Source: Escherichia coli O157:H7 (lineage in GTDB: Bacteria; Pseudomonadota; Gammaproteobacteria; Enterobacterales; Enterobacteriaceae). From it: DNA of 64,000 nucleotides. The notes beneath the pieces are model-generated. The model worked only from the letters and a program-made list of their open reading frames with translations, was not told where the DNA came from and did no database searches. The translations under genes were made by a program, and so were the position numbers. The DNA is taken from NCBI RefSeq assembly GCF_013167455.1, contig NZ_CP038328.1; one strand, given 5' to 3'. Shown one piece after another: positions 18,120 to 53,032 of this stretch (the first letter of the stretch is position 1; each line of letters opens with the position of its first letter).

Positions 18120-18263
18120 GTGAAAAAGTTTCGATGGGTCGTTTTGGTTGTCGTGGTGTTGGCTTGCTTGCTGCTTTGGGCGCAGGTATTCAACATGATG
18201 TGCGATCAGGATGTACAATTTTTCAGCGGAATTTGTGCCATTAACCAGTTTATCCCGTGGTGA
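18120..18263 (+). CDS. mgrB: PhoQ-inhibiting small membrane protein MgrB (47 aa, GTG start)
   Basis: Not in ORF track (<60 aa); read directly: [51 protein letters not shown] Shine-Dalgarno upstream. Confidence 0.9.
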
Positions 18264-18337
18264 TATCATTTTTTCAGCACTAGATTTTCTTCCTCTCCAG
18301 CAGTGGTAGAATAGCGCCTCTACTCAGAGGTGGTGAA

Positions 18338-18625
18338 ATGAACGAAGTTGTAAATTCAGGCGTGATGAACATTGCGTCTTTGGTTGTATCGGTGGTGGTT
18401 CTTCTTATCGGGCTCATCTTGTGGTTTTTTATTAATCGTGCCAGTTCTCGGACTAACGAACAGATTGAACTGCTTGAGGCGTTGCTGGATCAGCAAAAAC
18501 GTCAAAATGCACTGTTACGTCGTTTGTGCGAAGCAAACGAACCAGAGAAAGCAGATAAAAAGACTATTGAGAGTCAAAAATCGGTTGAAGACGAAGATAT
18601 TATTCGCCTGGTCGCCGAACGATAA
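18338..18625 (+). CDS. yebO: Small membrane protein YebO
   Basis: 95 aa with one N-terminal TM helix and a charged C-terminal tail. Confidence 0.8.
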   Translation: MNEVVNSGVMNIASLVVSVVVLLIGLILWFFINRASSRTNEQIELLEALLDQQKRQNALLRRLCEANEPEKADKKTIESQKSVEDEDIIRLVAER

Positions 18626-19293
18626 TCCTTCCTCAATCTTGAGTAACCCCGTCGTTGAAGGGTTACTCAATTCATCCTGATTATACGCACTGTCATGGTG
18701 CAACTGCTTCAAATTAAAACTCTGGTCTGACTTCAAATAATTATCATATTATTTATTTGCGTAACGGGATATCAGAAAAAGATATTTACCCCATTAATTT
18801 ATTAGGATGTTTACATCGGATTTGTGATTAAGCGTGGTATTATTTATTAGCGAAACGTTTCTCTCTTGATTTTTTTTGCTTATTCATCAATTTTTCTTAT
18901 TTTAAATTTCCAATTCCTTTGGGATTGACTTCTCTTTGGGGTGATTGAGAGCCGTTAACTGCCTGTTTTATGAGAAAAAGTGATATAACTTTTTATTCAT
19001 TGCATAGCAGAAAATGTGATATTGCACGCACTATGTAATAACTTCTCCCACTGACCTGGAACAACTGAACTTATTGAACTATGTTAGAAACTACGTCAGT
19101 TTAAGTATCTGCGGAACTGACAAGGTTAAGCACAATGATATATCGGCGCGTATTCCGTTGCATAAGTGTGCAAAAAAAGTGGAAGACGTATCGAGATTTG
19201 TGCGTCTGATCGAGACATGTTTAAAAATGGCTTGCCATAATTAACGTTGTATGTGATAACAGATTTCGGGTTAAACGAGGTACAGTTCTGTTT

Positions 19294-19437
19294 ATGTGTG
19301 GCATTTTCAGTAAAGAAGTCCTGAGTAAACACGTTGACGTTGAATACCGCTTCTCTGCCGAGCCTTATATTGGTGCCTCATGCAGTAATGTGTCAGTTTT
19401 ATCTATGTTATGCCTGCGGGCGAAGAAAACAATCTAA
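19294..19437 (+). CDS. yobF: Small protein YobF (47 aa)
   Basis: Read directly: [47 protein letters not shown]; stop 12 nt before cspC start (yobF-cspC operon). Confidence 0.8.
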
Positions 19438-19449
19438 GGAATTTTTCAA

Positions 19450-19659
19450 ATGGCAAAGATTAAAGGTCAGGTTAAGTGGTTCAACGAGTCTAAAGGTTTT
19501 GGCTTCATTACTCCTGCTGATGGCAGCAAAGACGTGTTCGTACACTTCTCCGCTATCCAGGGTAATGGCTTCAAAACTCTGGCTGAAGGTCAGAACGTTG
19601 AGTTCGAAATTCAGGACGGCCAGAAAGGTCCGGCAGCTGTTAACGTAACAGCTATCTGA
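19450..19659 (+). CDS. cspC: Cold-shock-domain protein CspC
   Basis: 69 aa [20 protein letters not shown]... with RNP1/RNP2 motifs. Confidence 0.95.
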
Positions 19660-19703
19660 TCGAATCCACTGATCTGAAGTGTGAATACGCTTCAATCTCG
19701 CTA

Positions 19704-50201: not shown

Positions 50202-50255
50202 CGTGTTTGTTCTCCCTTTCACGCATGATTTGTCACGTCACTATAGTACCGGATA

Positions 50256-51437
50256 TTAGCGAATTTCTTTGTCTCTCCCGGCACAAAGTCCGAAAATCGC
50301 CATCAGTAGTGAAAGTATTGCAACACCCATTAGTGGTACGGACCAGTCACCGTTAGCATCGTGTATTTTACCCATCAGCGGCGGCCCACAGGCTGCCAAC
50401 AAATACCCGACGGATTGTGCCATCCCCGAGAGTGCCGCCGCCTGATGCGCAGAACTAGCCCGCAGACCAATGAACGTCAACCCCAGTATCATTGTTGCGC
50501 CGGAACCAAAACCGAAAAGCAGAGTCCAGGTGATCGCGTGCGCTGGCATGAAGCAGAGCCCAACCGCGCCCACTGCGCACATCAAGGCAACGAACGCTGC
50601 AATACCACGCTGGTCTTTCACATGATGTAAGAAAAGTGGGATCAGCAAACCGGGAGCTGCTGTGGCTAGTTGCAGCAAACCATGCAGTGAACCCGCCTGT
50701 GCTTCGCTATAGCCGTGACTGATGAGGATCGCCGGAAGCCAGCCAATAATCACGTAATAGACCAGTGAGTTGATCCCAAGAAACAATGTTACCTGCCAGG
50801 CAAGCGGCGAACGCCAGATACCCCGAGTATGTAAGGCGCGTGAAGTACTCAAATTTGCATGTTGTTGGCTTCGCCACTGTGGCAGCCATAAAAAAAGAGC
50901 CAGCAGAGGAAAACACATCAGCATGAGCAACGCGCCTTGCCAGCCAAAACCGTTCAAAGCCAGCGGCACTACCATAGCCGATCCCAGAGCCGCCGCAGCT
51001 CCCATTGTCAGGGAATATGCGCCGGTAAGTCTGGCGACGGAATGAGGGAAATCGCGTTTAATTAATCCTGGCAGTAAGACATTACCTAATGCAATCCCAC
51101 CGCCAATGACCGCTGTACCGCCAAATAATAAGTAAGGCGAAGGGAGAGAGCGAATTGCGATACCTGCACAGATCAAAAGTAACGCGGCAAACAGGCTACG
51201 TTCCATACCAAAACGTCGAGCCACCGGGGCAGCCAGAGGTGAGATTAGCGCAAAGGCCAATAATGGCAGGGTGGTCAATAAGCCGGTTTGCGCAGTCGTC
51301 AGCGAGTAAGCGGAACGAATCGTATCGAGTAACGGTGCTGCGCCGGTGAAGGTGACGCGTAATGTAGTGGCAATCATCAGAATGCCAGCGATAAGGACAA
51401 TCCTGTTTTTGCCGCTTAATGAAGTTGAACAGGTCAT
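50256..51437 (-). CDS. nimT: MFS transporter NimT (YeaN)
   Basis: 393 aa; about 12 TM segments; divergent from the AraC-type regulator nimR. Confidence 0.85.
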   Translation of the reverse strand: MTCSTSLSGKNRIVLIAGILMIATTLRVTFTGAAPLLDTIRSAYSLTTAQTGLLTTLPLLAFALISPLAAPVARRFGMERSLFAALLLICAGIAIRSLPSPYLLFGGTAVIGGGIALGNVLLPGLIKRDFPHSVARLTGAYSLTMGAAAALGSAMVVPLALNGFGWQGALLMLMCFPLLALFLWLPQWRSQQHANLSTSRALHTRGIWRSPLAWQVTLFLGINSLVYYVIIGWLPAILISHGYSEAQAGSLHGLLQLATAAPGLLIPLFLHHVKDQRGIAAFVALMCAVGAVGLCFMPAHAITWTLLFGFGSGATMILGLTFIGLRASSAHQAAALSGMAQSVGYLLAACGPPLMGKIHDANGDWSVPLMGVAILSLLMAIFGLCAGRDKEIR

Positions 51438-51533
51438 ATGCTTCTCATTGTTACAAACGAGGCTGTACCTTACCGTTTTTATTGTTATGTTGAATCAAGC
51501 TAAAATGACAAATTATCGCTAAATTCGGACAAA

Positions 51534-52355
51534 ATGATGCACAGGTTGAATCTCAATGGCTATGAACCCGACCGACACCATGAAGCCGCGGTCGCATTTT
51601 GTATTCACGCCGGAACGGATGAGTTAACCAGTCCTGTACATCAGCACCGCAAAGGACAGCTGATACTGGCGCTACATGGTGCAATTACCTGTACGGTGGA
51701 AAATGCTTTGTGGATGGTGCCGCCACAATATGCGGTTTGGATACCGGGCGGGGTGGAACATAGCAATCAAGTGACAGCTAACGCTGAACTCTGTTTTCTG
51801 TTTATCGAACCCAGCGCAGTGACAATGCCGACAACATGTTACACATTGAAAATATCGCCCTTATGCCGGGAATTAATTTTAACTCTGGCAAACAGGACGA
51901 CGACTCAGCGTGCTGAGCCGATGACCCGCAGATTAATTCAGGTCCTGTTTGATGAACTCCCTCAGCAGCCACAACAACAGCTGCACCTACCCGTTTCTTC
52001 TCATCCTAAAATCCGCGCGATGGTGGAGATGATGGCGAAAGAGCCCGTCGAGTGGGGGGCATTGGGGCAATGGGCTGGCTTTTTTGCGATGAGTGAACGC
52101 AATCTTGCCCGACTGATAGTAAAAGAGACGGGGTTGAGTTTTCGCCAGTGGCGACAGCAGTTACAGCTGATTATGGCGCTTCAGGGATTAGTGAAAGGCG
52201 ATACTGTACAGAAAGTTGCTCATACGCTGGGGTATGATTCAACAACGGCCTTTATTACTATGTTTAAGAAAGGCCTGGGGCAAACGCCAGGCCGATATAT
52301 TGCGGGATTAACTACTGTTTCCCCACAATCAGCGAAACCAGACCCGTGGCAATAA
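51534..52355 (+). CDS. nimR: AraC-family transcriptional regulator NimR (YeaM)
   Basis: 273 aa; C-terminal AraC helix-turn-helix; 3' end overlaps yeaL by 44 nt. Confidence 0.85.
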
Positions 52356-52758
52356 GCGGGCCAACCGGTACGCCGCGAAACAGCGCTACGCCTAAAACAG
52401 TGCCCACCAGCAGCCCAGCAACCAGTTGCGGCTGGCTGCCCATTAACGTCACGCCGCGCCCACCCAGCCAGGAGACAATAACGCCTACTGCAATTGCCAC
52501 CAGCGATTTCCAGTTCAGAAACGAGTGAATCAAGGTTGAGGGCGGTAGCGTCCCGCTGGCGATGGGGGCCATAACGCCAATCGTCAGAATGATTATCCCG
52601 ATACTTAGCCCCTGTTTTTCAATCCACGGGAAAAAGGTGCTTAACGGTGTGACGCGGACAATGATCAACACCAGAATTGAAACGGCGACAGTGGTGTTAT
52701 GACTGATAAAGCCCAGCGCAGCTAACCCGAGCAGGATCAGCAAAGTGACATCAAACAT
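52312..52758 (-). CDS. yeaL: UPF0756 inner-membrane protein YeaL
   Basis: 148 aa; four TM helices. Confidence 0.85.
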
Positions 52759-52927
52759 CGTGGTTTCCTTGCCAAAAAATAATAAGCCTGCTTACTTTAC
52801 GCTTGCTGCAGGAAGGAAGTAGAAAATCTTTACGTTTTTTGCATAAAAAATCAGGCGAACTGTCATCAAACTGCCATTTGTGCACGCTAACAATAACGTG
52901 AAAACAGCTATCTCCCGGGGGTATGCT

Positions 52928-53032
52928 ATGAACGATCAAATGTTCGTCGAGACACTGATTATCACGTCATCGTTTTTTGCCATTGCTGTTGTGCTGGTTT
53001 TGTCCGTTCTGCTTATTGAACGGACAGGCTAG
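52928..53032 (+). CDS. yoaI: Small membrane protein YoaI (34 aa)
   Basis: Read directly: [34 protein letters not shown]; stop abuts yeaK stop. Confidence 0.7.

Follow-up and report, generated by a model that had tools for sequence, protein, structure and literature searches.

In a 64,000-nucleotide stretch of the Escherichia coli O157:H7 chromosome (contig NZ_CP038328.1; hereafter the window), we found that six short open reading frames (ORFs), mgrB, yobF, yoaH, yoaK, yoaJ and yoaI, are almost certainly genuine small-protein genes that belong to the E. coli core genome, all of them already catalogued. Both the genes and their interpretation were known, and a single result goes beyond the existing catalogue: judged from its substitution pattern across genera, the conservation of yobF is RNA-like, and it follows that of the cspC leader in which the ORF lies.

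The window is an O157-type chromosome segment that corresponds to approximately 1.868-1.928 Mb of the K-12 chromosome in the opposite orientation. Over positions 18000-22000, the mgrB-yobF region, it was 100% identical to E. coli FRIK1989 (NZ_CP111101.1), and this region was matched at a coverage of at least 80% in 5,418 of 5,426 complete E. coli genomes. An initial annotation, made from the letters of the window, had proposed the six ORFs as genuine genes, and their existence, coordinates and lengths were fully confirmed: translations agreed, the RefSeq annotation of FRIK1989 contains all six with identical intervals, and the curated K-12 MG1655 annotation lists the same genes. These are mgrB (18120-18263, plus strand, GTG start, 47 amino acids; b1826), yobF (19294-19437, plus strand, ATG start, 47 amino acids; b1824), yoaH (32155-32334, plus strand, ATG start, 59 amino acids; b1811), yoaK (48239-48337, minus strand, ATG start, 32 amino acids; b4676), yoaJ (48162-48236, minus strand, ATG start, 24 amino acids; b4675) and yoaI (52928-53032, plus strand, ATG start, 34 amino acids; b1788). 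The span that they define runs from the beginning of mgrB (18120) to the end of yoaI (53032). None of the six proteins differs from its K-12 counterpart by a single amino acid, each matched a curated profile (an NCBIfam equivalog or a Pfam family) above its cut-off, and the DNA of the six genes was present at the same minimum coverage in 5,403-5,424 of the 5,426 complete genomes. That an ORF track with a 60-amino-acid cutoff would miss these genes is true by construction, with maximal stop-to-stop ORFs of 47 (mgrB), 47 (yobF), 59 (yoaH), 37 (yoaK), 38 (yoaJ) and 50 (yoaI) amino acids. Such a loss is visible in practice, as the genes deposited with related assemblies do not include mgrB at L086 and L088 of our loci, or yobF at L086, L087, L088 and L091, despite ORFs that are intact or almost intact there.

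Length alone is uninformative here, as 538 stop-defined ORFs in the span could encode 20-59 amino acids, and there are 1,083 combinations of start and ORF. Upon calculating the pairing energy between Shine-Dalgarno (SD) and anti-SD sequences, we obtained -9.9 kcal/mol for yoaI, -7.2 kcal/mol for yobF, -6.9 kcal/mol for yoaH and -6.6 kcal/mol for both mgrB and yoaJ, which ranks these five genes among the strongest 4% of the 1,083 candidates; the median was -2.2 kcal/mol for the background and -6.1 kcal/mol for 35 larger annotated genes. The proposal that the six have plausible ribosome-binding sites was thus borne out by energy in five of them, but the SD of yoaK is weak (-2.8 kcal/mol, at the 40th percentile of candidates), and the GAGG of yobF lies unusually far from its ATG. 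As a criterion for single-pass peptides, we took one hydrophobic stretch of ~17 or more residues with a mean Kyte-Doolittle value above ~2. By this measure, MgrB (17-residue maximum of 2.95, at residues 7-23), YoaK (2.98), YoaI (2.81) and YoaJ (2.26), all in the top 2.1% of the span's candidates, are single-pass inner-membrane peptides, while YobF (1.45) is borderline and YoaH (0.85) does not qualify. The statement that most of the genes encode peptides with a single transmembrane (TM) segment therefore holds for four of six.

Comparison across genera revealed codon-level purifying selection in five of the genes. The ratio of nonsynonymous to synonymous differences per site (pN/pS) in the reading frame was 0.18 for mgrB, 0.13 for yoaH, 0.11 for yoaK, 0.28 for yoaI and 0.30 for yoaJ, against 0.86-4.3 in the shifted frames, and each of the five showed an excess of variable third positions (Fisher p ≤6e-4). 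For mgrB and yobF, cross-genus loci were collected by an exact look-up of the nearly invariant CspC protein, which yielded ten loci in backgrounds resembling E. coli, Salmonella, Klebsiella and Enterobacter. The 47-amino-acid mgrB ORF was intact in all ten, with retention of the GTG start and of the SD, GGAG (18110-18113 in the window, 6 nt from the start), and with 16, 5 and 34 variable sites at first, second and third codon positions, respectively. MgrB matched NCBIfam NF007635 over residues 1-47 of 47 (89.9 bits; cut-off 40) and Pfam PF13998 (66.3 bits; threshold 27), and its architecture of one N-terminal TM helix followed by a Cys-containing C-terminal segment was kept in the ten loci. 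In one Klebsiella-like locus (L091, 4745-4888), the MgrB motif reads MCVQDV, with Val replacing the otherwise invariant Asp of MCDQDV; the same locus carries a stop at codon 25 of yobF. Changes in mgrB have been tied to colistin resistance in Klebsiella (discussion of PMC11429745). In the published work, MgrB showed a start peak in ribosome profiling with retapamulin (Ribo-RET), was induced at low Mg2+, and served with PhoQ as the positive interaction control, while MgrB, YoaI and YobF were among 17 small proteins with raised start-site ribosome density at low Mg2+ (PMC11429745). MgrB would act, as described for this family, as a PhoP-induced feedback inhibitor of the sensor kinase PhoQ.

The yoaH gene is divergent from pabB and has an AGGAG at 32144-32148, 6 nt from its ATG. 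Its product is a soluble-looking, acidic protein of the UPF0181 family, with matches to NF003476 (114.2 bits; cut-off 72) and PF03701 (100.9 bits), and its 640 homologues, mostly of 59-61 amino acids, are distributed across many enterobacterial genera. In DNA from four other genera, AGGAG was kept and the numbers of variable sites by codon position were 9, 5 and 37; within E. coli, yoaH was found in 5,424 of the 5,426 complete genomes. Against solved structures, YoaH matched nothing but a designed TIM barrel, and that without significance (E = 0.003), and nearly all matches of a literature search for YoaH were unrelated to it.

We found yobF to behave differently from the other five genes. The ORF fills the 5' leader of cspC, ending 12 nt before the cspC ATG, so that leader and gene together occupy 19264-19659 on the plus strand (leader ~19264-19449; cspC 19450-19659); its GAGG, at 19277-19280, stands 13 nt from its own ATG. 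YobF matched Pfam PF10736 (DUF2527) with 105 bits (gathering threshold 25), through residues 1-38 of a 38-position model, and has no NCBIfam model. For this gene, the CspC look-up loci were complemented by Serratia, Rouxiella, Brenneria and Cronobacter loci obtained via YobF homologues, with codon statistics computed on nine genus-level sequences, and in every locus of the set yobF lay directly upstream of cspC. Within codons 1-38, variable sites were spread over the three codon positions as 11, 10 and 8, and pN (0.093) was close to pS (0.117), giving a pN/pS of 0.79 (0.66 and 1.29 in the two other frames). For cspC, these nine genomes showed 3, 1 and 41 variable sites, a pN/pS of 0.03 and a pS of 0.361, and the difference between the two genes was significant both at third positions (Fisher p = 2e-4) and at first and second positions (2e-7). 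Third positions of yobF were not in excess (Fisher p = 0.84), and neither codon periodicity nor a stable ORF length was found: the ORF spans 24-83 codons in relatives and ends at 24, 26, 38, 43, 47 or 56 codons depending on the genus. A 1-nt indel past codon 38 produces 43- and 38-amino-acid products in three loci, a TAA occupies codon 25 in a Klebsiella-like locus (L091), and database homologues of YobF (25-83 amino acids) have unrelated C-termini, with some members frameshifted internally.

The nucleotide sequence, by comparison, is conserved as one block. Over codons 1-38 of yobF, relatives shared 82-96% of nucleotides with E. coli, and over the 30 nt that precede the ORF they shared 83-100%; the block reaches from ~30-60 nt upstream of the yobF ATG to the start of cspC, with a collapse of conservation further upstream. 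The amino-acid conservation of YobF thus appears to follow the nucleotide-level conservation of the cspC leader, which the publications covered here leave unmentioned. Amino-acid conservation across Enterobacteriaceae, which the initial annotation had put forward as a check on the six genes, does not discriminate in the case of yobF.

The substitution pattern of yobF, its indels and its premature stop weigh against counting it among the six on comparative grounds: as it lacks a coding signature, conservation alone does not support a protein for it. The remaining points on this side of the balance concern the smallest genes and the published record. The SD of yoaK is weak, as described above, and none of yoaI, yoaK and yoaJ is universal in Enterobacterales. 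At the loci compared, yoaK and yoaJ were absent from Klebsiella, Raoultella, Yersinia, Serratia, Pantoea and Erwinia, where the context of the neighbouring gene yeaQ differs, and yoaI was cleanly absent from loci of the Citrobacter freundii group and C. sedlakii that keep yeaL and yeaK (L008-L010, L016, L017, L076, L083 and L084). Detection of yoaJ, yoaK and yoaI by tblastn favours in-frame amino-acid similarity, a bias that is limited, since the three turned up in syntenic position wherever their neighbouring genes are conserved. Finally, direct evidence of native translation was found for neither yoaJ nor yoaH in the literature covered, namely, the Weaver preprint, VanOrsdel 2018 and later papers. 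Published profiling or tagging, the other line of evidence that had been called for, or genetics is available for MgrB, YoaI, YobF and YoaK, but YoaJ features there only as a tagged construct that is a substrate of RseP.

Given these results, one may ask whether yobF is primarily a protein gene at all. The conserved element could instead be an RNA, namely, the cspC 5' leader, related to leaders of the cspA type, in which case the DUF2527/YobF family would be this RNA read in one frame, and translation of the ORF would be incidental or would act mainly in cis on cspC. The lack of codon periodicity, the low pS compared with cspC, a pN/pS no different from that of the shifted frames, and the genus-dependent end of the ORF with its internal frameshifts in some members are all as this alternative would have it. 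So are a conserved stretch that reaches from at least ~30 nt before the ATG to the start of cspC, the distant GAGG, and the invariable position of yobF directly upstream of cspC. Furthermore, the Rfam model of the cspA thermoregulator (RF01766) aligns across yobF (19274-19734), with 136.9 bits (gathering threshold 78), a score that comes mostly from the coding part of cspC. Published genetics points the other way. The growth defect of a ΔyobF strain at low Mg2+ was rescued in trans by a plasmid carrying yobF and not by a version with the ATG changed to TAA, a result not expected if yobF acted solely in cis or as an RNA, and YobF gave a Ribo-RET signal and was membrane-associated as YobF-His6 (PMC11429745). 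In addition, a combined constraint on RNA and peptide would freeze synonymous sites as well, so that a pN/pS near 1 is compatible with selection on residues 1-38, and the sample comprises nine genus-level sequences only. A specific conserved RNA structure for the leader was considered and received no covariation support: RNAalifold predicted 34 pairs, 33 of them without compensatory change and thus one with, with a covariation term of -0.21 kcal/mol, and the single-sequence fold had a z-score of +1.23. We therefore regard an RNA-only role as a serious contender that nonetheless falls somewhat short of being the probable one.

The most economical reading is one of dual constraint, with a translated yobF ORF inside a constrained leader. 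YobF is translated from the ORF that fills the conserved cspC leader and the peptide matters in K-12 at low Mg2+, but as constraint on the region acts mainly on the nucleotides, the peptides of different genera diverge at the C-terminal end and even in length. Tentatively, and with about the same reserve as for the RNA-only role, we suggest that the YobF/DUF2527 'family' may be mainly conserved cspC leader RNA with a lineage-variable peptide, of 47 amino acids in Escherichia and Salmonella, 38-43 in Klebsiella- and Enterobacter-like backgrounds and 24-26 in some genomes, and that translation of yobF may remodel the leader and so couple translation under heat or low Mg2+ to CspC output. If the leader RNA is indeed what is conserved, deletion of yobF removes most of the cspC leader, and published ΔyobF phenotypes would need to be re-examined for effects on cspC, a gene that is unmentioned in the study reporting them (PMC11429745). 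Two further observations concern cspC itself. The gene at 19450-19659 is named cspE by the Prokaryotic Genome Annotation Pipeline (PGAP) in FRIK1989, while the syntenic K-12 gene is cspC (b1823), which looks like a paralogue-naming slip of automated annotation. Also, most of the loci L086-L095 carry an extra transpeptidase gene of the penicillin-binding-protein type between cspC and rlmA that is missing in E. coli.

For yoaK, yoaJ and yoaI, loci were anchored on the neighbouring gene yeaQ, to avoid selecting for the small ORFs themselves, which gave 80 Enterobacterales loci with 10-kb flanks. In the window, yoaK starts 32 nt downstream of dgcP and is preceded by GGTGA (48342-48346), a motif located 4-5 nt before the ATG and kept in most genera. 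The yoaJ ATG begins 2 nt past the yoaK stop, and its SD, GGGAG (48244-48248), lies within the 3' end of yoaK. YoaK matched NF033821 with 69.1 bits (cut-off 32) and YoaJ matched NF011343 with 60.4 bits (cut-off 54), and yoaK-yoaJ DNA was found in 5,403 of the 5,426 complete E. coli genomes. All 30 loci with the pair in syntenic position, which come from Escherichia, Citrobacter, Salmonella, Enterobacter and Leclercia, have both genes intact; they comprise all loci with a DgcP orthologue plus two without dgcP (L012 and L017). YoaJ has 24 amino acids and ends in GWW in all 30, the yoaJ start codon being ATG or GTG at 29 of them, and YoaK has 32 amino acids in 29. The distance from the yoaK stop to the yoaJ start was 0-2 nt across loci, with GGGAG or GGGGG within the yoaK 3' end, which suggests that the two genes are translationally coupled; dgcP, which precedes this presumed pair, encodes a diguanylate cyclase. 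At codon level, yoaK had 13, 7 and 30 variable sites and yoaJ 15, 10 and 22, corresponding to Jukes-Cantor-corrected dN/dS values of 0.05 and 0.17, respectively, in the reading frame; in the shifted frames, these values were 1.06-5.1 for yoaJ, yoaK and yoaI taken together.

That yoaJ and yoaK are merely ORFs arisen by chance in the 3' untranslated region of dgcP, with an annotation propagated by homology, might be argued from the 538 ORFs of similar length in the span, the weak yoaK SD, a YoaJ profile score barely over its cut-off and the use of tagged, plasmid-expressed constructs in the RseP experiments, but this is highly improbable in view of the near-uniform length, start and stop in 30 yeaQ-chosen loci of five genera, the variability of third positions in 22 of 24 (yoaJ) and 30 of 32 (yoaK) codons as against second positions in 10 of 24 and 7 of 32, the contrast between the in-frame dN/dS of the two genes and their 1.2-5.1 in shifted frames, the better conservation of YoaK (81-100% amino-acid identity) than of the adjacent 341-amino-acid DgcP (66-70%), the persistence of the pair at the two loci without dgcP, and the detection of chromosomally tagged YoaK (YoaK-SPA, with a sequential peptide affinity tag) as a reference on immunoblots (bioRxiv 10.1101/511675). 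Tagged YoaJ, YoaK and MgrB were, furthermore, cleaved by RseP in vitro (PMC10470546). As a separate observation on this locus, dgcP (48370-49395, minus strand) carries an in-frame stop at 48547-48549, at codon 283 (Glu in K-12) and downstream of the GGDEF motif, and PGAP labels the gene a pseudogene; yoaK-yoaJ, 210 nt downstream of this stop, stay intact.

The yoaI gene is preceded by GGGGGT at 52917-52922 and its product matched NF041475 with 79.8 bits (cut-off 45). It differs from K-12 at five nucleotides, all of them synonymous, and its DNA was present in 5,411 of the 5,426 complete genomes. In 16 loci, a YoaI of 32-34 amino acids adjoins yeaK, with 19, 9 and 27 variable sites by codon position and a corrected dN/dS of 0.17. 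The gene was present in C. amalonaticus, Citrobacter sp. R56, Citrobacter sp. Awk 4, Enterobacter, Salmonella and Escherichia. At the C. freundii-group loci that lack it, no decayed remnant was found, and the yeaL-yeaK spacer measured 134-156 nt compared with 274-330 nt. The absence from some Citrobacter loci indicates that the EnvZ-binding peptide is dispensable in some lineages. In E. coli, YoaI gave a Ribo-RET start peak, was detected as chromosomal YoaI-SPA at low Mg2+ and in the membrane fraction, and interacted with EnvZ by two-hybrid (PMC11429745). It is a peptide induced at low Mg2+ or phosphate that binds EnvZ. The yoaI stop (53030-53032, plus strand) abuts the stop of the convergent yeaK (53033-53035, minus strand); as this leaves no space for separate terminators, the 3' ends of the two transcripts must overlap.

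The list of six was complete for curated genes hidden by the 60-amino-acid cutoff. The only other curated gene below 60 amino acids in the span is yoaL (25155-25313, plus strand), annotated with 52 amino acids and overlapping the start of yoaE (mgpA) by 13 nt, and it was not listed because its maximal ORF (25059-25313) has 84 amino acids and is visible in the track. YoaL matched Pfam PF22867 with 138.1 bits. Its annotated start has been revised, from a product of 69 amino acids (VanOrsdel 2018) to the present 52, and it is known as a leader ORF for yoaE/mgpA, in which a stop codon strongly lowers expression of yoaE-lacZ (bioRxiv 10.1101/511675; PMC12421838).

A PGAP 'hypothetical protein' of 40 amino acids (21194-21316, minus strand) lies in the leader of the mntP Mn2+ riboswitch. 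The aptamer match (21329-21425, minus strand) scored 40.1 bits, just below the gathering threshold of 45; the ORF starts 12 nt past it and ends in an ATGA overlap with mntP. This ORF is annotated in FRIK1989 and not in K-12, where a 1-nt indel turns it into a 27-amino-acid ORF with a different C-terminus, and in other genera its ATG is replaced by ATA or AGG contexts. It had no NCBIfam or Pfam match and is unmentioned in the paper on mntP regulation. We considered a riboswitch-controlled leader peptide and rejected this on account of the frameshift in K-12 and the lost start codon in other genera; the ORF is probably a spurious call, with the sequence behaviour of a non-coding leader, and it forms a useful negative control for the six genes. 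We also scanned the 7.7 kb of intergenic DNA in the whole window, with 289 start candidates of 10-59 amino acids, and found no further small ORF with signals comparable to those of the six. An SD of -6 kcal/mol or stronger preceded 6 of the 289 candidates, all with TTG or GTG starts, and the strongest extra candidate (47712-47774, minus strand) was rejected because it is not conserved beyond Escherichia. Known small RNAs, likewise invisible to an ORF track, are the antisense pair SraC/RyeA (minus strand) and SdsR/RyeB (plus strand), matched by Rfam at 3640-3784 between yebY and pphA, and SroD, matched by Rfam at 38784-38869 at the 3' end of fadD, before rnd.

Confirmation of the six genes is of practical value only: it is a reminder that real genes go unseen when ORFs are filtered by length, among them several regulators of two-component sensors (MgrB for PhoQ, YoaI for EnvZ). 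Lowering the cutoff alone would add ~540 spurious ORFs in the span, so that evidence from ribosome-binding sites, hydropathy, conservation or ribosome profiling is needed. Neither amino-acid conservation nor a Pfam match proves a protein-constrained gene, as yobF passes both and evolves like a non-coding leader. This qualifies the proposal that absent amino-acid conservation would refute such genes, and it raises a modest question on the cspC leader. Automated annotation errs in the other direction as well, as the 'hypothetical protein' of the mntP leader, frameshifted between E. coli strains, illustrates.

Several known systems invite comparison. For the MgrB/PhoQ feedback peptide, the full-length profile match, the N-terminal hydrophobic helix and a C-terminal segment like that in the Salmonella-, Klebsiella- and Enterobacter-like loci are the same, and a comparison at the sequence level found no difference. 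With the cspA leader, the yobF-cspC leader shares an end-to-end alignment of the RF01766 model over yobF and cspC and nucleotide conservation across Enterobacterales, and both a GCC-loop-GGC hairpin before the cspC SD and a 5'-end AACGAGGUACAG segment align with moderate to high posterior probability. Much of the leader, however, aligns with low posterior probability. We know of no peptide encoded in the cspA leader, whereas the cspC leader carries a translated ORF of 47 codons. Leader peptides or upstream ORFs that control a downstream gene, of which mgtL-mgtA is an example and yoaL-yoaE another, resemble yobF in that it fills the cspC leader and ends 12 nt before cspC; they differ in that a trans effect has been reported for the YobF peptide, while a cis effect on cspC is hypothetical. 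The small proteome of E. coli K-12 was reportedly assembled by the Storz, Hemm and Rudd laboratories, which found small membrane proteins through models of ribosome-binding sites and comparative genomics and then through ribosome profiling. All six genes belong to that catalogue, and what sets them apart here is what that approach relies on, namely, strong SD sequences, hydrophobic segments and conservation among related genera. For five of them nothing differs from what is catalogued, whereas for yobF the substitution pattern across genera resembles that of a leader RNA and not that of a protein.

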